Part shown: piece by piece, positions 1,416 to 13,337 of the stretch
How positions within the stretch are numbered: the first letter of the stretch is position 1
Layout of the letters: each line of letters starts with the position of its first letter
UHGV virus genome: UHGV-0099327
Origin: a virus
DNA length: 13,756 nucleotides
Reading direction: 5' to 3' (one strand)
Made by a program: the position numbers and the translations under genes
Notes under the pieces: generated by a model
The model's database searches: none
Told to the model about the DNA's origin: nothing
The model's input: only the letters and a program-made list of their open reading frames with translations

Positions 1416-1767
1416 AAATTTATATTATCTAATTTGAACAGCATCAAGTTGATGAATCGGACTAAGCAGATATGTAATTAACACCATCAGCTTAGTCTAC
1501 ATATAGCTTGTTATAATTTTTTACGACTCAACGAAGTCTTGTTAGGATAATGTAAACAAATCCGTTTTTTAGATGTTAGTAATATTAGCAATGTTCATCT
1601 TAGAATGTGATATCGAAGGAAACTCGAAAATGATAATAGCTTTACACTATTGAGAAAATTTGGTTGAGGCTTCAAAATAGAGCATTCATACGTGATCAAT
1701 AGCCAGACTAAGCAAGCAACAGCTAACCCCCGTAACGTACTGATTAAATTGATAATTGAAGGTGCAT

Positions 1768-2055
1768 ATGTTAAAAGTTACTGGTCTTGATAAGCTTCAG
1801 AAAGAACTCAAGGATGCAAAGCGTATACTGAGTGAGCTGGATGGCGAGCTAGGAGTCGTAAAGTTTAACCCTAACGACCCTGCTAGCATCGAGTCGGCAA
1901 TTCAAACAGTTAATCACATGATTGATGAACGCATTGGCGGATGTTCAACCAACTCCATAGTCGGCTCGCTTGCGCAGCAGATGAAGGAAACATACAGAGA
2001 AGGCATTCTTAAAAAAGCTGCCGAAGCCAGATTGACTTCAAGTGAGGATGAGTAA
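1768..2055 (+). CDS. hypothetical small protein (95 aa from ATG 1768), first gene of a two-gene operon with the TIR-like protein
   Basis: ORF with a GAAGGTG SD-like motif 3 nt before ATG 1768 (spacing short; the track starts at TTG 1756). Its stop overlaps the next gene's start (TAATG at 2053..2057). No family recognised. Confidence 0.5.
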   Translation: MLKVTGLDKLQKELKDAKRILSELDGELGVVKFNPNDPASIESAIQTVNHMIDERIGGCSTNSIVGSLAQQMKETYREGILKKAAEARLTSSEDE

Positions 2056-2951
2056 TGGCTCAAGATATTTTTTCTGAAATGAACAATGCTGTTCTGGATT
2101 TACAGGCTTCACAATACCAGACCTTTGAACGTCCACTCAAAAAGCTTGCTCAGCTTCTAAAACATTCCGATCTTGAATCATACAATGCAGACCTGACTGA
2201 AGGACTCAATCTTACAGAGTTTCTCGCAGAAAGTGAGAAGACTGGAGGAAGTATGGCTGGGAGTGCCCAGCTTGTCTGGCCAGATGATGCAAGAAAAACA
2301 CTAGGCCTTACATTACTTTTGATTTTTAAGTTAGCAGAAGATCCTAATTATGCAATCAACTTTGGACATCATTTTTTCTATTCCGGAAGTAAAGTTATAG
2401 CAGGCATTCATTCGATTACAGGACAACTTATCATTCCTTTCGTTAGAGATTACAAAAATTATGTTCAGTCTAAGGGAAGCACAGAAACTATGTTGAAGCC
2501 GCAGTTTTCGAACAAAGTTTTCATTGTTCATGGTCATGATGATGGCGCCCGTGAAACAGTCGCAAGGTTTCTTGAACGTATAGGTTTAGAAGCAATCATA
2601 TTACATGAGCAAGCTAATCAGGGACGAACTGTCATTGAGAAAGTTATAGCAAATAGTGATGTTGGATTTGCTGTTGTATTGCTAACACCAGATGATGAAG
2701 GTTGTGCTAAAGGAGGAATACCAGAACCAAGGGCAAGGCAGAATGTAATGCTAGAATTAGGATATTTTATCGGGCGTTTAGGCAGAGAGAAAGTATGTGC
2801 ACTAAAACGCGGCTCACTAGATATTCCAAGTGATTTTGCTGGGGTTGTTTGGGAAAATATGGATAGCAGTGGAGGCTGGAAGCAAGCACTCGCACGAGAA
2901 CTTGAAGCTGCTGGTCACAATATTGATTGGAATAAAGCAATGCGGAGTTGA
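2055..2951 (+). CDS. TIR-like domain protein (Cap12/PycTIR-type nucleotide-binding domain at C-terminus, uncharacterised N-terminal ~150 aa); candidate anti-phage effector
   Basis: 298-aa ORF with a GAGGA SD. The C-terminal half carries the motif series KVFIVHGHDDG (nt 2517..2546), AVVLLTPDDEG, RARQNVMLELGYFIGRLGREKVCAL and IPSDFAGVV. From memory this matches the bacterial TIR-like family found in CBASS Cap12 and Pycsar effectors. The N-terminal domain is not recognised. Confidence 0.6.
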   Translation: MAQDIFSEMNNAVLDLQASQYQTFERPLKKLAQLLKHSDLESYNADLTEGLNLTEFLAESEKTGGSMAGSAQLVWPDDARKTLGLTLLLIFKLAEDPNYAINFGHHFFYSGSKVIAGIHSITGQLIIPFVRDYKNYVQSKGSTETMLKPQFSNKVFIVHGHDDGARETVARFLERIGLEAIILHEQANQGRTVIEKVIANSDVGFAVVLLTPDDEGCAKGGIPEPRARQNVMLELGYFIGRLGREKVCALKRGSLDIPSDFAGVVWENMDSSGGWKQALARELEAAGHNIDWNKAMRS

Positions 2952-3037: not shown

Positions 3038-3134
3038 ATAAATCATTAATGATATTGCTTAAATAAGTTTTAACGACTCATCTTCTGCCCCCCCTCTAAC
3101 AAAAAATAATAGTTACTCTGGGACTTCTGAAACA

Positions 3135-3163
3135 CCGAGATGTTTCGAGCGCTCGGCTTTTTT
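3135..3163 (+). terminator. putative intrinsic terminator downstream of the TIR-like operon
   Basis: CCGAG ... CTCGG stem (3135..3139 and 3152..3156) contains the palindrome CGAGCGCTCG and is followed by TTTTTT (3158..3163). Confidence 0.35.
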
Positions 3164-3288
3164 CTGCTGTGTGAAAATTCCAAATCAATTCAGTTCATCA
3201 TCGATAGACAGGACTGATTCCGGATGATTTTTCCGTTCAAGATAAATACAGTAATAAACCCTTGGGCCACTTGTGTAAGGAGAATAAA

Positions 3289-3810
3289 ATGGCACGTAAA
3301 ATTTACGTCAGTATGACTGATATGGCAAAACGTTATGGTTATACCCTTAACGCTATTAAATCATGGAGAGCAGAAGGACTTCCTTATTCAGATAATCCAG
3401 CAGGAATACCAGAAAACGAAGGCACTTTATGGATCGTTCAGAACAAAATTAATCCGATGCGCAATATGTCTGTTCGTGATGAATTCGAGAAAGAAAAACT
3501 TCGTGAACAGGTGGCGAAGGCTGACTTAGCAACTTATGCAGCGCAAGAAAAATCAGGTGAATTAATCCCTGTTGAGTTGGTGCAAGCTCAATTGAATCAG
3601 TTCTGTCAGTCTCTGAAAGATTCCATCAGGCTGATTCCGTCAAAACACGGTATCGAAATCATGGAGTCTGCTAATGATATCCAGGAGCTGAAAGAAAAAC
3701 TCAAAGAGATTTTCAACAGAACATTGAATGAACTTGGTGAGTCGTTCGAACAAGACTTCGAACACGTTGACAAACCAGAAGAGAAAGAAGATAGTGAAAT
3801 TGAACTTTAA
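3289..3810 (+). CDS. terS: terminase small subunit, lambda Nu1-like (N-terminal winged HTH)
   Basis: ATG at 3289 with an AAGGAG SD 6 nt upstream. The N-terminus (SMTDMAKRYGYTLNAIKSWRAEGLP) resembles the lambda Nu1 HTH (KKQLADIFGASIRTIQNWQEQGMP), followed by a similar EKEKLREQV acidic/coiled segment. An intrinsic terminator follows immediately. Confidence 0.6.
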   Translation: MARKIYVSMTDMAKRYGYTLNAIKSWRAEGLPYSDNPAGIPENEGTLWIVQNKINPMRNMSVRDEFEKEKLREQVAKADLATYAAQEKSGELIPVELVQAQLNQFCQSLKDSIRLIPSKHGIEIMESANDIQELKEKLKEIFNRTLNELGESFEQDFEHVDKPEEKEDSEIEL

Positions 3811-4316: not shown

Positions 4317-6086
4317 TCATGGATAGTACAAATTTTTAAAGTGATTATTAATATCAACCATAGCATCAAGAATTGGTTTGAACAATGAAAAATCTATAGT
4401 CTGTCTATTTTCTCTGATAATATTGTTGGCAAACCTGTCTTTTCCAAAAGTAGTAGTGCTATCATGATTATTACTTTTATCAAAGGATTTACCGTTAATT
4501 GTCTTTGTCAGAACTTCATCTTTGAAAAAGTCTTCCATGCACGATTGTTTATCACCAGCCAATAGTGGAGTTAACAATACGTAGAGGTTATTCTCTAAAT
4601 GTAAAAATTTATGTTTTCTTACGTCCTCTGATTTTCTAGGCAGGTGAGAATATTCTTTGATTATATTATTAATAAAATCAGATGGCCCAGTGTCATTATC
4701 CAAAACAATTATTACTGGATTTTTAGGCGGTTGTCTTTCAAATTTCTTGCATTGTTCTCTATGCCTTCTAAAGAATCTTACATAGTCAGCAGCCCCACCG
4801 TAGAGGTCTAAAAAATATTCCTTTTTTGCGTTTGTTTTGAATAACGTAATATTTAAAATTCTATTCTTTGTTCTATCGTCAACTCTAACCAGAGCAGGAT
4901 AACTTAAATACAAAGAATCAATTGCACATTTCAAATAAATTGGATCTGTTTTACCTTCTGTCAAAACTGTAGGCTTTATATTCCCATAAAAATACTTATA
5001 ATGAAGAAAGTTACTGAATGCTGTCTCTCTTGAATTCAATTTGAGAGTAAAATTAATTCCAGTTTTCTTTAGCACATATTTTTCTGGGAGTGTATGTTTT
5101 TTAGCGTTAATGTTATTATACTTATCAAGCATATCAATATAAACGAAGCGGCCTTCAAGTTCATTTAGAGTACCTTTTCGCGGTTTTCCACTAATATCCA
5201 AAAGGGTAAAATCCCCTTCTTTATAAAGTGCATGCGCCATAGCTCTGGTTTTTTTAATATAATCTTTATTGACATTTATTTTTTTGTTTACGGTTAAACC
5301 TGTTACTTCCTGCCTTGATGTATGCCGCAATATTCTGGTCTTATTATTATTAATTTTAAATCCAGCTTTTTCAATTTCATTAACTAACAATGGTCCTAAC
5401 TCGTTAGAATTCTCATTTATAACAATTGAGTCAGGAAACTGATTTTTGTTAGTTGAGAATGTTATATCATCTGCATATCGACTATAACTGCATCCATTAG
5501 AAAGTGCCAACTTTGACAATCTAATATCTAAAATATTACATATAAGATTGCTTATTACAGGAGAGCAAGGACTTCCTTGCGGAAGTTTTCCATCATAGCA
5601 AGCTATCTGCGCAATTATAGTTGCTATTGATGGGTGCAAATTAAAATATTGATTCGCGATAAAATAACCACGGACCCTACCGAAATTAAATGTAGGGAAA
5701 AAATCCTCAAGATCAATATTTAAAACATTGGTTTTATTTCTATGTCTTTCTGCATTTGTTATTATTGTTTTATTTTTCTCAAATCCATGAGATAAGCTAG
5801 GGGTGATATTATTTGTTTTCCATATTTCGCTCTGACAAACATACAATAAATCTGATAAACGCCTTTGTATGTCTTTTAGTTTTTCAGTAGGCGCAAATAT
5901 CTCTCTGTCACCTCCAGACTTCTTTTTTATAATAAATCTTTCATATTGATGCTCAGGTCGTATTCTGTACAGGACATTAGTAAGAAAAGAAACTTTAATT
6001 TGAAGTAAGCGTGCAAACTCAAATTTGGTCTTGCATGACTTGAGTCTTTCTAAGTAGGAGGGAGTGAACATAATAGTAAATTCCAT
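4317..6086 (-). CDS. retron reverse transcriptase fused to a C-terminal TOPRIM (OLD-nuclease-like) domain, Ec67-type
   Basis: 589-aa ORF carrying RT motifs: KKSGGDREI (aa 55..63), NIDLEDFF (motif A, Asp125), QGSPCSPVISN, and YADD (aa 204..207, nt 5477..5466). The C-terminal region has TOPRIM-like TEGKTD and VLDNDTG motifs. Size and motif order match my recollection of the Ec67 RT (about 586 aa). A retron-like ncRNA lies directly upstream. Confidence 0.9.
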   Translation of the reverse strand: MEFTIMFTPSYLERLKSCKTKFEFARLLQIKVSFLTNVLYRIRPEHQYERFIIKKKSGGDREIFAPTEKLKDIQRRLSDLLYVCQSEIWKTNNITPSLSHGFEKNKTIITNAERHRNKTNVLNIDLEDFFPTFNFGRVRGYFIANQYFNLHPSIATIIAQIACYDGKLPQGSPCSPVISNLICNILDIRLSKLALSNGCSYSRYADDITFSTNKNQFPDSIVINENSNELGPLLVNEIEKAGFKINNNKTRILRHTSRQEVTGLTVNKKINVNKDYIKKTRAMAHALYKEGDFTLLDISGKPRKGTLNELEGRFVYIDMLDKYNNINAKKHTLPEKYVLKKTGINFTLKLNSRETAFSNFLHYKYFYGNIKPTVLTEGKTDPIYLKCAIDSLYLSYPALVRVDDRTKNRILNITLFKTNAKKEYFLDLYGGAADYVRFFRRHREQCKKFERQPPKNPVIIVLDNDTGPSDFINNIIKEYSHLPRKSEDVRKHKFLHLENNLYVLLTPLLAGDKQSCMEDFFKDEVLTKTINGKSFDKSNNHDSTTTFGKDRFANNIIRENRQTIDFSLFKPILDAMVDINNHFKNLYYP

Positions 6087-6516: not shown

Positions 6517-7257
6517 TCAGAGGGCATTTGAGCTAAATAAAGTTGATTCGACGAGTTCAATTGCTTCATCTTCGATAGTTGATTTGTCCATTGTTTTGGT
6601 CGGCTCAGAAATATCAATTTTCACAATTACAATCTCGTCATCAAAAGATAGTTTTTCACCCCTTCTTTCTTTACGTAAAACGCTGTTCTCTTTGCTGAGT
6701 TCAGCGTTTTTCCTTTCTAACTCTGCGACTCTTTTCATCAAATCTTCCATTTTGGAATTCACAACATCTAGTTTCTGCTCAGTCGGAAATTCAATACTTT
6801 CGATGATTTCAATAAATTCACCAGTATACATCTGAACAAACTGCTCGGTGTCTTTGATCTTCTGCATTCTTAGATCTGAACAGAAAGCTTTCCACGAGTT
6901 CTTTTTACCGTTAATTTCACAAGCAACGATAACAGCATTATCGGTTGTATAAGCAACGATTGCAGGCAGATTATTAACTTCGGTCGTACCGATTTCGAAG
7001 CTATGCATATTTTTTACAGTCACAGCATTTTCAATCTTCTGTAACATCTTAGCTCGAACATTACGATGAATATCTATAGCTTTAACAAGAGCTTTCAGGC
7101 TGTTTTTGTTATTGGTCATTCTATTAACTTTGATAATATTTCTGTTCAGGCTTGCTTTAACTGTTCTGTCTAGATTTTCGAAGACTGCAAATTTGAAATT
7201 CAATTTATTTGCCTTTATTGATTGGTTGAGTTCTGATATTACGTTTTTTGCAAGCAT
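6517..7257 (-). CDS. hypothetical protein (246 aa) with C-terminal coiled-coil-like segment
   Basis: Long ORF with phage-like codon usage. No SD before ATG 7257. The 5' 53 nt overlap the upstream HTH ORF in a different frame. C-terminal region (KMEDLMKRVAELERKNAELSKENSVLRKERR) is heptad-like. Family not recognised. Confidence 0.5.
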   Translation of the reverse strand: MLAKNVISELNQSIKANKLNFKFAVFENLDRTVKASLNRNIIKVNRMTNNKNSLKALVKAIDIHRNVRAKMLQKIENAVTVKNMHSFEIGTTEVNNLPAIVAYTTDNAVIVACEINGKKNSWKAFCSDLRMQKIKDTEQFVQMYTGEFIEIIESIEFPTEQKLDVVNSKMEDLMKRVAELERKNAELSKENSVLRKERRGEKLSFDDEIVIVKIDISEPTKTMDKSTIEDEAIELVESTLFSSNAL

Positions 7258-7363
7258 TATACATCGTTGCTTTATTCATTTGTTTAGATTCTGCAATTTG
7301 CTGAAATGTCTCACCAGAGTCTAAGCGAGATTCAATTTCGAATTTGTTAGGTATAAATTTCAT
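7205..7363 (-). CDS. small HTH-like protein (52 aa from Met at 7363); possibly the N-terminal part of a frameshifted larger gene
   Basis: ORF track entry 7205..7399. I prefer the internal ATG at 7363 because the terminator hairpin at 7394..7413 overlaps the longer version. The segment SGETFQQIAESKQMNKATMYNACKK looks like a helix-turn-helix. No convincing SD. Confidence 0.3.
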   Translation of the reverse strand: MKFIPNKFEIESRLDSGETFQQIAESKQMNKATMYNACKKRNIRTQPINKGK

Positions 7364-7393
7364 GGGGTTGCCTTTTTTATTGAATTGAAAAAT

Positions 7394-7419
7394 AAGCACT
7401 CCGAAGAGTGCTTTAAACT
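7394..7419 (-). terminator. intrinsic terminator on minus strand (8-bp stem, UUCG tetraloop, U-tract)
   Basis: The + strand AAGCACTC-CGAA-GAGTGCTT at 7394..7413 reads on the minus strand as AAGCACUC-UUCG-GAGUGCUU followed by AUUUUUCAAUUC. Confidence 0.45.
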
Positions 7420-7619
7420 TAAGGAATTTTTAAATGAACTAAGCTAATTGCTTATATCTTATTTTATGACGGATAAAGTCAGTAGTAAACAAACGAGAGA
7501 AAATAACGAGGAAGAAGAAACTCTCTGTGTTCATACTAATATTTATATAGTTCACCGAAAGTGTAAACAAAGTCCGAAAAATAATTTAGTGAAAAGCAGG
7601 TGCATTGATGCACATCAAA

Positions 7620-7643
7620 ACGCATCGATAACGCATCGATGCG
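7620..7643. repeat. tandem direct repeat ACGCATCGATA/ACGCATCGATG, the second copy lying within a perfect 12-bp palindrome CGCATCGATGCG; adjacent TGCAT-tg-ATGCA inverted repeat at 7601..7612
   Basis: Read directly from the sequence: two 11-nt copies at 7620..7630 and 7631..7641, and the palindrome at 7632..7643. Operator-like architecture in a stretch with no convincing ORF. Confidence 0.4.
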
Positions 7644-7762
7644 ACTCGGAGAAGTGCATGGACCCTAGAAAAAATCGCCCTATAAGAACAATTGGATAAA
7701 GATGAACTGGAAGGATATAGAAGCAGTACAAAACCTGGAAAACATAGCGAAGCGAGCAGATT

Positions 7763-7888
7763 GCGCGAAGCGCGGGCGAAGCCCTAATTGATAAACATTA
7801 GCGCGAAGCGCGACAGATAACACTATCGAACTTGATTACTAGCTACTGATTAGATGTTTCTAGATAAAGATTATTAGCGCTTCGCGCG
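7763..7888. repeat. cluster of GC-rich mini-hairpin repeats (GCGC-GAA-GCGC, GGGC-GAA-GCCC, GCGC-TTC-GCGC) embedded in AT-rich non-coding DNA
   Basis: GCGCGAAGCGCG at 7763..7774 and 7801..7812, GGGCGAAGCCC at 7774..7784, and the inverted version GCGCTTCGCGCG at 7877..7888. Copies two and three share the 5' flank ATTAGCGC. These are GCGAAGC-type hairpins, known to be unusually stable as DNA. Confidence 0.5.
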
Positions 7889-8350
7889 TTCGCTACGCTC
7901 ACAATATTATTTTTCAGATCTGGATAATAATGATTACTGGATAACTGCATTATACTGTTCGTCTGACAATCAATAAACATAACGATCGATAATTAATTGA
8001 AATAACGTTAATGAGTTCTCCTTCGCTATCGCTACGTCGAACGGGCAAGCCCTATCTTTGATGATAGTAATGATTGACTGCTACATCATCCCTCCTCGCT
8101 TCTCCCTGCTTCTACTGACCTAATGATACTCCAAGTCAATTCCCTGTTATCAAGTTCACCTGATGCTTCCTGCTTCGTTATCGACCTTATTGCTTTTGAC
8201 TCTACGCTTTCAGCTTCGCAGGAAGTACGCCCTGCTGTTTGCAGATCGTTCTAAAGAACTGAGTAATCAAGTTCTCAACTATTTGATTCCTTGCGCCCCA
8301 AAGATGCCTCCAGTATCTGTGGTTTACAATCTACTCATTTGAAATTCAAT

Positions 8351-8378
8351 AAAAAAGGGAGCACTAAGCTCCCTTTTG
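8351..8378. terminator. intrinsic terminator hairpin (GGGAGC-ACTAA-GCTCCC) flanked by A-run and T-run, probably bidirectional
   Basis: 6-bp GC-rich stem at 8357..8362 and 8368..8373, with AAAAAA upstream and TTTT downstream. It lies immediately 3' of the 59-aa minus-strand gene, whose stop is at 8379..8381. Confidence 0.55.
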
Positions 8379-8558
8379 TCATTTCAGATCAAGCACTAAT
8401 GCTTGTTCAAGTTTTTTCTCAAGCAGAGTGTTTAATCCACTTTCGAAAAATTCAATCGCTTGAACGTCTGAGTCTGTTTTTAAGCGAACAGCGGCATCGT
8501 CAACTGTTAACTCTTCGGTCTTAACATCACCGTTTTTATAAACCACATTAGCAATCAT
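8379..8558 (-). CDS. hypothetical small protein (59 aa), not in the supplied ORF track
   Basis: My own translation of the minus strand: AAAGGAGAAAGC-ATG (ATG at 8558..8556) opens a 59-codon frame, MIANVVYKNGDVKTEELTVDDAAVRLKTDSDVQAIEFFESGLNTLLEKKLEQALVLDLK, ending TGA at 8381..8379 and followed directly by the terminator. Strong SD with ideal spacing. Confidence 0.5.
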   Translation of the reverse strand: MIANVVYKNGDVKTEELTVDDAAVRLKTDSDVQAIEFFESGLNTLLEKKLEQALVLDLK

Positions 8559-8796: not shown

Positions 8797-9231
8797 TTAG
8801 GCATTCTCAGTTTCACTCATTTCTCCTTTAGTGCTATTCACACAGCGAAGAAACTGATCCCTCTGATACGCGGCAGTTTTGTCTGACATCTGTTTTTTGA
8901 ATAACTCAAAATCCCCCTCTGTACGTTTAAAAATAATCATGCTAATCGCAGATGGTTTTTTATTAGCCGATTTGCTAGCAAGAAGTTTTTCGATGTTATC
9001 GAATCCGAAAGCCTGATTCACGATTCGTTGTGCTTCAACAGCATCGACAACTTCAACCGTATTTTCAGCTTTAACTTCTTCAACAACTGTATATTCCTCG
9101 ATGTTAGCTTTAACACGACGAACAACAGAACGAGGAACATCGTATTTTTCAGCAAGCTTACTCTCTGACATATCAGTACCAGCGTTTAATTCAGAAGCAA
9201 TTCGGTTTTCAACAGTCAGTTCAGTTTTCAT
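8797..9231 (-). CDS. hypothetical HTH-containing protein (144 aa from Met at 9231), divergent from terL
   Basis: The internal ATG at 9231..9229 is preceded by AGGAGA, whereas the track start at 9288 has no SD. The N-terminal segment SESKLAEKYDVPRSVVRRV looks like a helix-turn-helix. C-terminal part not recognised. Confidence 0.55.
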   Translation of the reverse strand: MKTELTVENRIASELNAGTDMSESKLAEKYDVPRSVVRRVKANIEEYTVVEEVKAENTVEVVDAVEAQRIVNQAFGFDNIEKLLASKSANKKPSAISMIIFKRTEGDFELFKKQMSDKTAAYQRDQFLRCVNSTKGEMSETENA

Positions 9232-9376
9232 TGTCGTTCTCCTGTGTTTTGTTGGAACAGACTTTAACAGGCGGATATCCAGGTGCAAGAACTCTTAGAA
9301 ATAATTTTATGGAGGTTTTCATAAATACAGACAGAGAAATGAAATCCATTTTGGGTTCATCCACTTAGGGCTGATT

Positions 9377-11260
9377 ATGAAAAACTCAAATAAACTGAAA
9401 AGTATCTTACAGAATGCAAAGCGCTTTTTAATGCCACCTCCTGACTACACTCCGTCCGAGTGGGTCGAACAGTACCTGAAATTCCCTGATGGTCCTTATA
9501 CAGGGCAGCCGATGAAACTGTTTGAGTTTCAGAAAGGCATGATTGACGTCATTAAAGAACGTAAGAAGAAAATCGTCTTCGAGACTTCTGCCCAGATTGG
9601 CAAGACAACCATCTTGAACGGAATTCTGTTCTATAAGTCTGCTACTGATCCCGGTAACGCTGGTGTCTTGCAGTCAACCGGTAAAGAGACGACTCAATGG
9701 CTATCAGGCAAGATTCGCCCAATGATTGACGAATCGGAAGAAATGCAACGAATCGTCACCGACAAGAACGACAGAAACGCAGTGAATAACACCAGTCAAA
9801 TTCAGCTACGTGCTGGAGGCTTTTGGTATTTCATGTCGCTCAATAGCCCTTCTCACTTACGCGGTAAAACTCTTCCGCTGATGTTGCTTGATGAAGTTGA
9901 CGCAGTTGAAACAGACACAGAAGAAGGCAACCCGATTATCATCGCGGAACAACGTGCTACGACGTTCGGTGAAGACGCTCGTGTTTTCATTAGCTCGACG
10001 CCTACAAGTAAATACGGTGCTATCCACACGCAGTATGAAGCATCCGACAAGCGCAAGTATCATGTTCCCTGTCCTACATGTGGTCATAAGCACGAACTGA
10101 CGTGGGAGAATATCAAATTCGACTGGGTAAAAATCGATGGTAAATCATTACCTGATCCTAACTCTGCCAGAATTGAATGTCCTGAATGTCATCACGCTTT
10201 CTCTGAAGGCGACCGAGCACGAGCAATTAAACAAGGTGAATGGATTATTCATCAACCTGAAAGTCGAATTGCTGGATTCCACGTAAGTCGTTTATACAGC
10301 CCAATGAGTTCTATCAAATCAGTTGTTGAAGACTATAAGCAAGCATGGCAAACGTTCAGCTTGTCAACGTTTTATAACACTGTTCTTGGTCTACCGTTTG
10401 ATGATTTAAACGAAGACATTGAGGTTAGTAAATTAGAAACACTCAAGACGAATATCGGCATCAGCAATATACCAGAAGACACGTTGTTTTTAACCGCTGG
10501 GGTTGACCAACAGCAAGACCGTTTAGAAGTAACCTTGATGGGTCACAACGAACGAACCGTTTATATTCTTGCACATCGTAGCTTTATGACAATGAACGCT
10601 GAGGTTATCGATTCCCCTGCTTATAAAGAACTTCTTGCATACGTTAAAGCACCGTTCAGAACAGCTTTGGGAAGAAAGGTTCCTTTAGCGTGGGTGAACG
10701 TCGATAGCTCAAACGGTCGAGCAACTAAAACAATCTATCGTTTCTGCTCTCAGTGGACAAACCTGAAAGCAATTAAAGGTGCCAGCTCTGTTGATGCCCC
10801 TTATGTTCCAACGAAAATCACGAAAACCGGTGGTTATGAACTTTATATGATTGGTGTAAACCAAGGAAAAAACTTAGTTCGTGAACTGCTAAACAGAAGC
10901 GTGAAATCTGGAAATACACCAGTCAGAGTCGAAATCTCTGATGATGTTCCAGATGATTACTGCGAACAGCTTATGTCCGAAGAATTAAAACGCTCTGGTA
11001 ATACTGTTAGATGGGTTATTAAACAAGGCGGTGTTCGTAACGAAGGTCTTGACTGCTTTAACTACGGTTATTGCGCGCGTCTGCAAGTTCTAGAGAAAAT
11101 CAAATTTCACGAGTGGAGGAAACTCGCTGCTAAACCTGATATTGAAATGCCAGAAGAACAAAACGAAACAAATTCTCCTATTATTCAAACTCCTGAACCT
11201 CGTCGAAACATTATCAAACGAAACAGACCAGTTAATAAGCCTCGTGGTTTCGGATTATAA
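9377..11260 (+). CDS. terL: terminase large subunit, lambda GpA family
   Basis: 627-aa product with Walker A-like ETSAQIGKTT and Walker B-like LMLLDEVDAV. Blocks resemble lambda gpA: HVPCPTCGHKHEL ... CPECHH (Cys-rich), FHVSRLYSP, LTAGVDQQQDRLEVTLMG, IKGASS, GLDCFNYGYCA. Length is close to lambda gpA (about 641 aa). Confidence 0.9.
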   Translation: MKNSNKLKSILQNAKRFLMPPPDYTPSEWVEQYLKFPDGPYTGQPMKLFEFQKGMIDVIKERKKKIVFETSAQIGKTTILNGILFYKSATDPGNAGVLQSTGKETTQWLSGKIRPMIDESEEMQRIVTDKNDRNAVNNTSQIQLRAGGFWYFMSLNSPSHLRGKTLPLMLLDEVDAVETDTEEGNPIIIAEQRATTFGEDARVFISSTPTSKYGAIHTQYEASDKRKYHVPCPTCGHKHELTWENIKFDWVKIDGKSLPDPNSARIECPECHHAFSEGDRARAIKQGEWIIHQPESRIAGFHVSRLYSPMSSIKSVVEDYKQAWQTFSLSTFYNTVLGLPFDDLNEDIEVSKLETLKTNIGISNIPEDTLFLTAGVDQQQDRLEVTLMGHNERTVYILAHRSFMTMNAEVIDSPAYKELLAYVKAPFRTALGRKVPLAWVNVDSSNGRATKTIYRFCSQWTNLKAIKGASSVDAPYVPTKITKTGGYELYMIGVNQGKNLVRELLNRSVKSGNTPVRVEISDDVPDDYCEQLMSEELKRSGNTVRWVIKQGGVRNEGLDCFNYGYCARLQVLEKIKFHEWRKLAAKPDIEMPEEQNETNSPIIQTPEPRRNIIKRNRPVNKPRGFGL

Positions 11261-11280: not shown

Positions 11281-11775
11281 ATGCAAAAATCAAATTCAGA
11301 AATTTACATCGGTGAAAAACTCGCTGTTTATAATCCTGAAGGTGCAACAGTCTCCATAGGCTCAACTGAAACTAAATTGTTTTCTCAAACTGATTGTCCA
11401 GCGAATATCTCGGTGGACACATCAGATTTTATCGAAGGAACTTTTTCTGTTGTTGTTCTCTATGAAGGTGCGCTTATCAGTAACAGCATTATCAAAGTGA
11501 AATCACCATTCGTTTCAAAAACGAAAAAAGAACAACTCAGGGAAATGATTAACGATATCGATACGGTTATTCAGTATCGTCTGACAAGTAACGAAGAAGC
11601 TATTCAGCAAATGAGCATTAACGGTAAATCATTCGTATATGAAACCCTTGATTCTCTGCTATTAGCTCGCAAACGTCTATTAGCAAACTTGGCGAATCTG
11701 ATTAAGTCAGAACAAATGGCAAACGGTAAATCTCCGATTGTTACTATTAAAGCGAGGTTCACGAATCCATCATGA
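11281..11775 (+). CDS. gpW-like head-tail joining/head completion protein with N-terminal extension (putative)
   Basis: Strong SD (AAAGGAGAA) before the ATG. Sits between terL and portal, where lambda has gpW. The C-terminal ~70 aa (SINGKSFVYETLDSLLLARKRLLANL) loosely resemble the gpW fold signature. At 164 aa it is much longer than lambda W (68 aa). Confidence 0.4.
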   Translation: MQKSNSEIYIGEKLAVYNPEGATVSIGSTETKLFSQTDCPANISVDTSDFIEGTFSVVVLYEGALISNSIIKVKSPFVSKTKKEQLREMINDIDTVIQYRLTSNEEAIQQMSINGKSFVYETLDSLLLARKRLLANLANLIKSEQMANGKSPIVTIKARFTNPS

Positions 11776-13337
11776 CATTAAAAGAATTTTTCACATTTAA
11801 AAAACCAGAACCTGAAAAGCGTTCGAAGGGTTACAGATTAGTAAATTACAAACAACCAAAGCTTATTATCGATAACGACAAAGCTTATGGTTCAGAGATG
11901 AAACGTCTTATGGGTCCTCGTGTTGACCGTTTGGATGGTGATTTCAATACTAATCTGATCAGAACTGCAACGATTAATAACGAGATTCGAGGCAACGTTG
12001 AAAAACTGCGTGATATGTCCCGAACTCTGACAGTTAATAGTCCGTTTGCAAAACATGCAGCACAATATCAGATTGATAACGTTATTGGTGAAGGTATTAA
12101 TCCTCAACTGCGTATTCTTCAATCTAATGGTAAACCGAATAAGAAACTGAACTCTGCTATTTCAAATCAGTTTTATTTCTGGGCAGACTCTGCAAAACGT
12201 TTCAGTAAAAACGAGCGTATGAACTGGCGCAGATTCCAAGAAATGGTTGAACGTTCTCGCTTCGTTGATGGTGAAGTTTTTATCCGTATCTATGAAACAG
12301 AAACTGAATTTAAACTCGAACTGATTGAAGCAGCTCGCTGTAAATTCGGTGAAAGAGCAACAACTGAAAACGGTTATATTCTTGACGGTATCGAATACGA
12401 CGCATCGAATACACCGATTCGTTATTACTTTGACAGCGTAAACCAATCGACTCAGACAGCATCAGGAAAGTCTTATTCTGTTGAAGCATCAGACGTTATT
12501 CATTATTTCAAAGACGAGTTCCCTGATCAGCGTAGAGGTTATCCAGAGATAACTCCTAATATCGACGTTATGAATCAATACGACGCTTTTACAAAAGCCA
12601 CTCTTGTTCAAAAACGTGCTGCTGCAAGTTCTATGGGTTTCATCACTCAAGATAAAGACGGTCAGGATAACATCGAACTCGATGACGATAACGAAATGCA
12701 AGAAACTCCTGAAATCATTCAGAACTTTGAATCAGGAACAATTCATCAATTGCCTGCTGGTTACGATATCAAGCAGTTTAGCTCTACTCAGGGCGGTGAT
12801 GATTACTTGAATTTCACAAGTCGTCTGGAAGATATGCTTTCGATGGGTTACGGCTTTTATAAGCAAGGTTGGAAAGGTGATACGTCAGGTATTAACTATT
12901 CTGCGGCTCGCTTCGGTGATTTAACTCAACGTAATAAATTCCGTTCTGTTCAACGCAATATTAAAGAGCAAGTTTTTGAAACTATCTTTGAACGTTGGTT
13001 GACTTGGATGATTATGCAAGAACGAATTCAAATGCGCATGACTGCTATTCCAGAGATGTTAAGACAGACTGTTTGGACATATCCAAAATGGGCATCAATC
13101 GACCCAAGCAAAGACGCACAGAAAGACGCGCTTGATGTTGAAAACGGTTTTAAATCTGCTGCTGACGTAATTATTGAACGCGGTGAAGATCCAGAACTGG
13201 TGTTTGCTCAGATTGAACAAGAGAAAACTCGTTTTGTTCCGAAATACAGTAATCAAATTGCGGTTGCTTCTGTTGCTGCTGATGCGCAAGTGGAAGTTGC
13301 TGAAATTAATTCGGATAACAGCCAGAAAAACATCTAA
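11772..13337 (+). CDS. portal protein, lambda gpB-type
   Basis: 521-aa ORF whose start overlaps the upstream stop (ATGA). Position after terL and W, length and sequence character (for example GYDIKQFSSTQGGDDYLNFTSRLEDMLSMGYG, SAARFGDLTQRNKFRSVQ) are consistent with lambda-family portals. Confidence 0.8.
   Translation: MTLKEFFTFKKPEPEKRSKGYRLVNYKQPKLIIDNDKAYGSEMKRLMGPRVDRLDGDFNTNLIRTATINNEIRGNVEKLRDMSRTLTVNSPFAKHAAQYQIDNVIGEGINPQLRILQSNGKPNKKLNSAISNQFYFWADSAKRFSKNERMNWRRFQEMVERSRFVDGEVFIRIYETETEFKLELIEAARCKFGERATTENGYILDGIEYDASNTPIRYYFDSVNQSTQTASGKSYSVEASDVIHYFKDEFPDQRRGYPEITPNIDVMNQYDAFTKATLVQKRAAASSMGFITQDKDGQDNIELDDDNEMQETPEIIQNFESGTIHQLPAGYDIKQFSSTQGGDDYLNFTSRLEDMLSMGYGFYKQGWKGDTSGINYSAARFGDLTQRNKFRSVQRNIKEQVFETIFERWLTWMIMQERIQMRMTAIPEMLRQTVWTYPKWASIDPSKDAQKDALDVENGFKSAADVIIERGEDPELVFAQIEQEKTRFVPKYSNQIAVASVAADAQVEVAEINSDNSQKNI

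Follow-up and report, generated by a model that had tools for sequence, protein, structure and literature searches.

What is the role of a cluster of short GC hairpins that lies in a long gene-free stretch of phage DNA? The question is raised by a 13,756-nt sequence from UHGV virus genome UHGV-0099327 (the window; coordinates given without a handle refer to it, and + and - denote the strand as presented and its complement), which is part of a ~31-kb Escherichia coli prophage (L029 9895 to L030 2831). A first-pass annotation of the window had noted three copies of a GCGC-(GAA or TTC)-GCGC hairpin together with a GGGC-GAA-GCCC hairpin at 7740-7900 and had offered four explanations: a replication signal, a packaging signal, a set of protein-binding sites, or part of a structured RNA. 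Every element so described is present in the sequence. The analysis reported here places these hairpins in a larger set of single-stranded DNA (ssDNA) mini-hairpin cores that switches strand midway, and the best explanation of the cluster is that it makes up the conserved center of a control region belonging to a small (~30-kb) temperate phage of enterobacteria. Among the explanations first offered, a replication signal is the best supported, and the reading that we tentatively favor is a replication origin or control region, in which extruded ssDNA hairpins serve as priming or loading marks.

Content and strand order of the hairpin cluster

In the mini-hairpin motif, two G-C pairs are combined with C-G closure and with pairing of G and A across the loop (G...A). 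By inspection of the sequence, the 11-mer GCGCGAAGCGC occurs at 7763-7773 and again at 7801-7811; GGGCGAAGCCC at 7774-7784 immediately abuts its first copy, the 17-mer ATTAGCGCGAAGCGCGA occupies 7797-7813, and GCGCTTCGCGC lies at 7877-7887. The four hairpins recognized initially span 125 bp, and GC content at the cluster is 0.39-0.41 vs ~0.38 for the prophage.

The 7-mer GCGAAGC occurs six times on the two strands of the window, in all six cases inside 7747-8219; the shuffle expectation is 1.23 (standard deviation 1.07), and none of 200 shuffles reached six. Seven of the eight GCGNAGC matches in the window fall inside the same interval. Widening the pattern to the published classes GCGNAGC and GCGNNAGC added two cores, GCGTAGC at 7892-7898 (-) and GCGATAGC at 8025-8032 (-). 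In total, eight cores between 7747 and 8219 agree with the mini-hairpin definition of Hirao (GCGNAGC / GCGNNAGC), and they stand in the order ++++----: four on the plus strand (7747-7809), a 65-nt AT-rich spacer, and four on the minus strand (7879-8219). The 5-mer CGNAG is distributed in the same manner, with five copies on + at 7647-7808 followed by seven on - at 7880-8218 and a single + exception at 8217.

From left to right, the plus-strand array comprises the minimal core H0 (GCGAAGC, two G-C pairs, 7747-7753; also found in L034, L042, L123 and L124), H1 (GCGC-GAA-GCGC, 7763-7773), H2 (GGGC-GAA-GCCC, 7774-7784), which forms a tandem pair with H1, and H3 (GCGC-GAA-GCGC, 7801-7811), which is embedded in the conserved sequence ATTAGCGCGAAGCGCGACAGATA. 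The spacer between the arrays, delimited from the alignments at 7812-7876, is a candidate unwinding element. The minus-strand array begins with H4 (GCGC-GAA-GCGC on that strand, GCGCTTCGCGC on +), inside a 33-nt block identical in four aligned lineages, and continues with H5 (GCGTAGC, the tandem partner of H4), GCGATAGC of the GNNA class, and the outermost GCGAAGC core at 8213-8219. A palindrome, GGGCAAGCCC, preceded by GTCGAAC, is located at 8043-8052. Thus, the placement of the cluster at 7740-7900 was right as far as it went; the true extent is ~7747-8219, within the gene-free region, and the cores at 7747-7753 (+), 7892-7898, 8025-8032 and 8213-8219 (all -) had been overlooked, as had the clean strand switch.

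The motif is a property of this locus. When 62 kb of surrounding chromosome and prophage sequence from E. coli (L029, L030) are taken together, GCGCGAAGCGC is confined to this region, and the 1,051-nt region is single-copy in each of the 6 of 5,426 complete E. coli genomes that carry it. The worry that the hairpins might be a generic repeat scattered genome-wide was not borne out, and a dispersed repeat of the REP/BIME kind was rejected for the same reasons: the hairpins occupy one place per genome, and the 11-mer is absent elsewhere in the 62-kb flanks.

Conservation of the loop rule across lineages

The comparison covered eleven lineages, taken from E. coli, Kluyvera, Enterobacter, Citrobacter and three distant phages. 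Eight are of the window type (the window itself, L033, L034/L070, L035, L042, Kluyvera L121/122, Enterobacter L123 and Citrobacter L124); the distant ones are L037, L043 and the ~29-kb small-phage part of PQ671644 (DCP80). All eleven have a gene-free region of 0.9-1.8 kb at the same place (1.2-1.8 kb in L037, L043 and DCP80, where it is immediately upstream of the late genes), and its left-to-right content is common to them: a minus-strand terminator with compensatory stem changes, leftward promoter-like sites, lineage-specific and partly palindromic repeats, and short GC hairpins. The region holds no conserved open reading frame (ORF), and its indels among relatives are not multiples of three. 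No DNA match to it was found in the INPHARED phage collection, terminase scans of assembled genome contigs (with a single sequence and with an alignment) returned no relatives, and a metagenome scan with a 19-mer gave 69 loci, of which two were true relatives and the rest chance matches in GC-rich contigs. It should be noted that the GenBank entry PQ671644.1 (L050, L120), "Escherichia phage DCP80," 140,978 bp and filed under Tevenvirinae, appears chimeric: its first ~29 kb are a small phage related to the prophage (terminase 53% identical), after which T4-like genes (motA, rIIA) follow.

Cores were searched for as two-pair stems, S-C-NNN-G-S', and their loops scored as GNA or TNC. Over the eleven lineages, such loops are found in 80 of 95 cores inside the region (84%) vs 34 of 257 outside it (13%; 12.5% at random). 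Density is 6.5/kb inside and 0.28/kb outside, a 24-fold difference (Fisher p = 4e-36, a value that overstates independence since the lineages are related). The strand order persists as well: in 10 of the 11 lineages nearly all plus-strand cores precede the minus-strand ones, as in L123 with ++++++--------.

Individual hairpins reveal how the rule is maintained. Compensatory changes were read directly from the sequences, the MAFFT alignment having displaced the GTAA-loop variant by one column. In L035 the fourth pair of H1 is changed from G-C to A-T on both sides (GACGC-GAA-GCGTC), and in L034 H2 reads TGGC-GAA-GCCA, a compensatory change from G-C to T-A. The H2 loop, which is GAA in the window, is GTA in L042 and L121 and GTAA in L035; the H3 loop of L033 became GTAA, and H5 of L034 became GCGTCAGC, each via a 1-nt insertion. 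Altogether, three independent 1-nt indels convert GNA to GNNA with the G...A retained, and among the loops seen at homologous places (GAA, GTA, GCA, GGA and GTAA) every change keeps the closing C-G and the loop G...A. The counterpart of the palindrome at 8043-8052 is GCGC-TTC-GCGC and GGGC-TTAC-GCCC in L035, GCGCC-GGA-GGCGC in L042, and GGC-TGGC-GCC or GGC-TGAC-GCC in L123, L124 and L121. Stem length is 2-4 bp in the window; L035, L037 and L043 have stems of 5-7 bp. The distant lineages have unrelated 5-7-bp stems that obey the same loop rule. Neither the sequence nor the length of the spacer is constant (~50-105 nt in relatives of the window type), and only its edges, GACAGATA... and ...TTTCTAGAT, are conserved.

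These comparisons bear directly on the suggestion that the repeats are protein-binding sites, i.e., duplex-DNA sites or cruciform targets of an architectural or regulatory protein, or a polar GAAGC element read by a protein, with hairpin potential being secondary. GAAGC does occur five times on + (7726-7809) and six times on - (7879-8219) with no breaks of order, some copies lie outside hairpins, and small helix-turn-helix (HTH) proteins, one of 52 aa and one GntR-like, are encoded alongside. However, no half-site is common to the lineages, in which only the closing C-G and the loop-end G...A are constant, and GTA, GCA, GGA and GTAA substitute for GAA at homologous places. Stems that differ fully between lineages argue against a sequence-specific duplex binder of the hairpins; the neighboring HTH proteins more plausibly bind the separate, lineage-specific operator/iteron repeats already present at 7600-7645. 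We therefore consider the duplex-site reading quite improbable.

A second alternative, to which we give slightly less credence still, is that small palindromic repeats propagate themselves, expanding and contracting in tolerant non-coding DNA and serving no function. Copy number certainly varies: the 37-38-nt unit GCGCGAAGCGC-G-GGCGAAGCCC-TAATTRATAACATTA (H1, H2 and spacer) is deleted in L007 (~9409-9495) and tandemly duplicated in L123 (4359-4443), which looks like recombination between GCGCGAAGCGCG copies, and L035 has an extra block. Loops also flip while their flanks stay direct (ATTAGCGC-GAA-GCGCG vs ATTAGCGC-TTC-GCGCG), and tandem GCGAAGC arrays exist in many unrelated phage contigs. Such a process hardly accounts for the finding that H3, H4 and H5 lie in 100%-identical blocks, whereas the terminase proteins of the same lineages are only 82-87% identical, or for the maintained strand order, the survival of the loop rule through indels, and the confinement to one locus.

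DNA versus RNA structure

Among GCNNNGC fragments, the mini-hairpin is formed only by those with GNA, and two classes, GCGNAGC and GCGNNAGC, are distinguished (PMC13037366). In oligonucleotide form, d(GCGAAGC) and d(GCGAAAGC) melt at 76.5 °C each, as compared with 39 °C for r(GCGAAAGC); mini-hairpins withstand 3' exonucleases, and two consecutive (tandem) mini-hairpins bind the single-stranded DNA-binding protein SSB poorly (PMC13037366). Natural mini-hairpin cores have been described in G4 oric, RSF1010 ssiA and the N4 promoters (PMC13037366). The classification of the hairpins as GCGAAGC-type ssDNA mini-hairpins in the first-pass annotation agrees with these rules in the GNA triloops, the C-G closure, the interchange with GNNA and the conservation of two-pair cores.

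As far as can be judged from sequence, the hairpins of the cluster follow the rules of ssDNA mini-hairpins and not those of RNA tetraloops. Cores of only two pairs are conserved (H0, H5 and 8213-8219); the tetraloops GATA, GTCA and GCCA depart from the GNRA rule of RNA; and the loop rule holds on whichever strand bears the G...A. For these three reasons, DNA fits the data better than RNA. The comparative evidence points to selection on hairpin structure in its DNA form, and we infer that the hairpins form in vivo.

An RNA role, which we regard as unlikely but as deserving a full hearing, would involve overlapping leader or antisense transcripts of both strands that start at flanking promoters and in which the GC hairpins act as protein-binding, processing, pausing or stabilizing elements and regulate the leftward early and rightward late operons in a nut/boxB- or antisense-like manner. 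Conserved promoter-like sites are present on both sides (7489..7461, 7567..7538 and the TATAAT at 7954-7949, all on -, and a weak + site at 7658-7686), terminators bound the region, and each half has a purine excess on the strand bearing the GNA loops. RNA folding of 7740-7900 yields z = -4.15 and -3.59 for the two strands. The late operon of L037, L043 and DCP80 has the region as its leader, and L037 and L043 share a conserved hairpin, C(UUCG)G on the minus strand, with compensatory stem changes. Nevertheless, the z-scores stem from long-range pairing of 7746-7774 with 7877-7899; DNA and RNA folding alike predict this helix, but L033 and L035 have lost it and kept the local stems, and it was not retained as a candidate element. 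The two-pair cores would be unstable as RNA, given the 39 °C melting of r(GCGAAAGC), and the non-GNRA tetraloops are equally out of place. The strand-independent loop rule would need two convergent RNAs, the minus-strand cores reach 8219, to the right of the TATAAT site, and neither a boxA, nor an N-like arginine-rich protein, nor an Rfam match was found. The more specific proposal of a structured RNA that ends at the minus-strand terminator fares no better: the terminator is real, with a promoter-like site only ~50-90 nt upstream of it and no Rfam match, and the distant pairing to which the RNA folds owe their good scores is not conserved.

A candidate replication-initiation region

Genes for head, tail, lysis, terminase and integrase functions are present in the ~31-kb element, which is without recognizable replication genes or a CI/Cro-type repressor. 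Among the proteins encoded on either side of the region, namely the products of the window ORFs, the 245-aa protein on the integrase side and the tape measure, none matched a primase, helicase or initiator family; the annotation of the remainder of the element lists no gene for replication, primase, helicase or RNA polymerase. Lacking recognizable replication genes, the phage must recruit host functions through a cis site. Operator-like repeats, a variable AT-rich spacer and opposed hairpin arrays in such a phage are, in our opinion, best fitted by a replication-initiation region, and we infer that the region is an origin, with priming taking place there.

The proposed mechanism would run as follows. 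The region opens with the lineage-specific operator/iteron repeats (7600-7645), followed by the plus-strand array of mini-hairpin cores (7747-7811), the variable AT-rich spacer (7812-7876) and the minus-strand array of the same cores (7877-8219). Once the spacer is opened by an initiator, transcription or supercoiling, each template strand would snap into stable C-GNA-G or GNNA mini-hairpins, the GNA hairpins presumably lying on the 5' side of each opened strand. The hairpins would keep SSB off and act as single-strand initiation marks, in the manner of G4 oric and IncQ ssiA/ssiB. Host or phage priming or loading machinery could then start synthesis within the spacer and run outward both ways, so that a primer laid down in the spacer would presumably be extended through the hairpins, leftward on the plus-strand template and rightward on the minus-strand template.

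Several observations weigh against this proposal. No DnaA box, IHF consensus or CTG primase start was noticed by eye beside the hairpins, where no dedicated scan was made. The order of the opposed sites, + then -, is the reverse of that in IncQ (- then +). Polarity is imperfect in two lineages: L042 has one stray plus-strand core at the right end (a right-side hairpin with its GNA loop on +), and DCP80 is of mixed polarity. The candidate initiator, a 246-aa protein encoded to the left of the region, has an AlphaFold2 pLDDT of 48. With promoter-like sites on either side of the arrays and terminators at both ends of the region, transcription probably also runs through the hairpins. Finally, the RNA z-scores given above are good, and nearest-neighbor DNA folding returned ordinary energies, equal on both strands and with no special stability, although the model has no mini-hairpin term and its result is for that reason uninformative.

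A bolder form of the proposal is that the locus represents an undescribed phage initiation element, in which opposed, strand-polar arrays of mini-hairpins (GCGNAGC / GCGNNAGC) surround an unwinding spacer and allow a ~30-kb double-stranded DNA phage without replication genes to recruit host priming on both strands. We consider this possible but on the whole doubtful. If true, it would be the first natural system in which mini-hairpins are a repeated, selected functional unit. For decades, the d(GCGAAGC) mini-hairpin has remained a curiosity of biophysics, and a 2026 review (PMC13037366) gives only isolated natural examples; here, a family of small prophages of enterobacteria keeps 8-14 cores per genome, with the exact in-vitro rules and a conserved strand switch, providing comparative evidence of in vivo selection on ssDNA structure. 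The locus would also offer a compact, ~500-bp testable E. coli system for the role of mini-hairpins and for the start of replication in a phage without recognizable replication genes. For annotation, the gain is that a long non-coding stretch beside a retron and a TIR defense gene is a core phage control region and part of neither defense system.

The same geometry has to be weighed against a packaging role. A cos site, or a site of end protection, could be envisaged in which a cut in the central spacer leaves hairpins on the 3'-ended strand of each end as a guard against exonucleases. With the order + left and - right, the strand ending 3' at a break in the center would presumably be the one that carries the GNA cores, the resistance of mini-hairpins to 3' exonucleases suits such a role, and the region lies upstream of the gpA-type large terminase gene. 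Against this, the spacer is variable in sequence and length, unlike cosN; a lambda-type cos would have a conserved nicking site and terminase-binding repeats just upstream of the small-terminase gene. A block conserved in all lineages does occupy the position expected in lambda-like phages, ~100-150 nt upstream of the small-terminase gene. This block, AGTTACTCTGGG...CGAGATGTTTCG...TTTTT at ~3112-3165, is conserved even in distant lineages whose surrounding intergenic DNA does not align, and it is a candidate cos or terminase-binding site. A packaging signal at the hairpins is accordingly highly improbable.

Equally improbable, to our mind, is an array of N4-type hairpin promoters, in which extruded template-strand hairpins are read outward by a single-subunit RNA polymerase. 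N4 early promoters are 5-7-bp stems with 3-nt loops and GGA or GAA mini-hairpin cores, and the strand order would presumably give outward transcription from both arrays. However, the annotation of the ~31-kb element includes no RNA polymerase-like gene, the window stems are only 4 bp long, and so many copies would direct transcription into one short stretch.

Other features of the non-coding region

The gene-free region, 7414-8356 (~944 nt), lies between two minus-strand gene blocks and holds all of the hairpins. In relatives that lack the retron described below, it is 73-76% identical, with 100%-identical blocks. At its left boundary, just upstream of the 52-aa HTH gene, a terminator scan identified an intrinsic terminator or leader hairpin on the minus strand, AAGCACTC-UUCG-GAGUGCUU followed by a U run (7394-7413), i.e., the terminator of the first-pass annotation, with an 8-pair stem and a T run. 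In relatives its stem changes from GCACTC/GAGTGC to GCGCTC/GAGCGC, a compensatory substitution. A promoter scan predicted a promoter-like TTTACT-17-TAAAAT for the leftward operon at 7461-7489 (-), the hexamers of which lie in blocks conserved in window-type lineages, and a second promoter-like site at 7567..7538 (-). Because the conserved promoter-like site at 7489..7461 is so close upstream, the transcript that ends at the terminator is more likely a small RNA or a short leader belonging to the leftward operon.

The operator/iteron repeats at 7600-7645 consist of GTGCATTGATGCAC, two copies of AACGCATCGAT and the palindrome GCATCGATGC. They vary by lineage: the window has the CGCATCGAT type, L042 has GCATCGCAAA, L035 four copies of GGTGCCC, L037 three copies of AAATGCAATTTCTGAACC, and L043 seven copies of TGTGCAACGTTG. 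To their right, a weak promoter-like TGGACC-17-TATAAG lies at 7658-7686 (+), and a perfect TATAAT with a weak -35, seen by inspection at 7949-7954 (-) in the conserved block TAACTGCATTATA, is possibly a leftward promoter. That block is kept in most window-type lineages and absent in L123; similar CATTATA blocks are found in L043 and DCP80. The right boundary is a bidirectional terminator (8357-8376), in which GGGAGC-ACTA-GCTCCC stands between an A run and a T run; it ends the 59-aa gene. Rfam 15 gave no match at gathering thresholds; at E <= 5 only weak matches were obtained, all of them at the two terminators.

A 21-nt inverted repeat, 7371-7391 / 8338-8358 (CCTTTTTTATTGAATTGAAAA / TTTGAAATTCAATAAAAAAGG, 90% complementary), brackets the non-coding region beside both terminators. 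It was considered as the ends of a mobile or invertible segment and set aside: its right arm is not conserved in relatives, and the repeat is A/T-rich and may be due to chance. At the right edge of the region, many relatives carry free-standing NUMOD3 or HNH homing-endonuclease-like genes (L012 8997-9611; L121 485-1090; L123 3187-3801; L124 2448-3056; L023 5377-5883; L028 5385-5873), which are not found in the window.

The prophage and its genes

In strain 2021CK-01361, the prophage is located between ybiT and ldtB, with a large serine recombinase as its integrase; it is also present in MS 115-1. In L005 (CP128440.1, 13448-14425), the prophage sequence stops just past the small-terminase gene and abuts the pykF-lpp-suf region rather than the ybiT side, which suggests another integration site or a rearrangement. 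The window encodes a lysozyme (930-1415, +), a TIR-domain protein (2055-2951, +), a Nu1-like small terminase (3262-3810, +), an Ec67-type retron RT-Toprim, i.e., a fusion with reverse transcriptase (RT) (4317-6086, -), the 246-aa protein, which is a coiled-coil protein (6517-7257, -), and the 52-aa HTH protein (7205-7363, -). To the right of the gene-free region follow the 59-aa ORF (8379-8558, -), the GntR-like protein (8797-9288, -), the gpA-type large terminase (9377-11260, +) and the portal (11772-13337, +). No tRNA or tmRNA was found. The small- and large-terminase genes are 5.5 kb apart, with other genes between them, which is unusual among lambda-like packaging modules. Another atypical trait is the order of the tail genes, among which the tape measure comes last; the tape measure is a 799-aa protein (PHROGs), and other large proteins are annotated as a tail fibre and a DUF1983 protein.

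A C-terminal FmdB-type zinc ribbon is present in several homologues of the 246-aa protein (among P0002, P0006 and P0010), and in L123 such a ribbon is encoded by a separate gene downstream of the homologue. The zinc ribbon hints at a nucleic-acid-binding or regulatory role of this early protein.

The retron was identified by PADLOC as RT-Toprim_I-C (E = 7e-216) and by NCBIfam as retron_Ec67_fus, and it is missing at the same position in related prophages. Inverted repeats GCACATGCAGG / CCTGCATGTGC (a1/a2) at ~6232-6102 (-) adjoin the RT start at 6086 and likely mark an msr-msd directly upstream of the RT. The possibility that the hairpins are the retron msr-msd RNA was rejected, since the a1/a2 repeats lie elsewhere and the region is kept in relatives without the RT; as it is kept in these retron-less relatives, the hairpin region is core phage DNA and not part of a defense system. 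A two-gene module at 1756-2951 (+) pairs a 99-aa YuaX-like protein with one of 298 aa that has a TIR domain of the CAP12/Pycsar type (PADLOC PDC-S35, E = 1e-70), and it looks like a second defense cargo of the prophage.

Comparison with known systems

A scan of IMG/VR for three GCGAAGC at short spacings gave at least 120 matches. Among the matches listed, many are regular tandem arrays in gene-free DNA of unrelated phage contigs (L129, L152, L157, L159, L187, L202, L242 and others), with periods of 5, 11, 14, 16 or 29 nt, none a multiple of three, and up to 17 copies; a few of those listed show strand switches, as does L157 from - to +. These arrays may be related to the prophage element. The L152 array adjoins a Dda-like helicase gene and lies between TTATCCAC motifs. 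A general association of such arrays with DnaA boxes was sought and discarded (0.11 vs 0.09 per kb, no enrichment); the L152 example is therefore only anecdotal.

The lambda nut sites, like the prophage cluster, belong to a central control region whose two strands both bear hairpins with GC stems and purine-rich G...A loops. The nut sites lie downstream of divergent promoters, which is the opposite geometry, and they depend on a boxB pentaloop with a GNRA-like fold, a boxA and the N protein, none of which was found in the prophage. The promoters of the N4 virion RNA polymerase also resemble the cluster in their short GC stems and 3-nt GNA loops (GGA/GAA) on one strand of duplex DNA. They differ in number and placement, being three promoters of the same polarity at the genome end, and in their requirement for a 3,500-aa virion RNA polymerase, none being annotated in the prophage.

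The complementary-strand origins of G4, St-1 and alpha3 use a mini-hairpin core as well. There, GCGAAAGC or GCGTTAGC stands at the start site of host primase on SSB-coated ssDNA, and priming by host primase alone (DnaG-only) would suit a phage without replication genes. Unlike the present case of opposed arrays in a double-stranded DNA prophage, these are ssDNA phages with one origin on one strand, and no conserved CTG start was seen by eye beside the prophage hairpins.

For the RSF1010 ssiA/ssiB sites, the IncQ1 plasmid oriV was examined directly. In its layout, iterons and an AT-rich stretch are followed by a minus-strand GCGCAGC core and, last, by CCGAAGG, the plus-strand core of ssiA. Membership in the IncQ ssi family is not claimed, given the reversed strand order and the primase that IncQ encodes for itself: the plasmid has its - site on the left and its + site on the right, and it encodes its own primase (RepB'), helicase and initiator, none of which was found in the phage. 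Each of its strands also bears a single site, in which a 7-bp stem is set in long conserved flanks, as compared with 3-8 short cores per strand in the phage. The likeness nevertheless extends to both the hairpins and their setting: in each system C-GNA-G core hairpins (CCGAAGG in ssiA, GCGCAGC in ssiB) are placed on opposite strands, beside an AT-rich stretch and repeats, which are iterons in the plasmid and operator or iteron repeats in the phage. By analogy, we propose that the phage element may work like an ssi-bearing origin.

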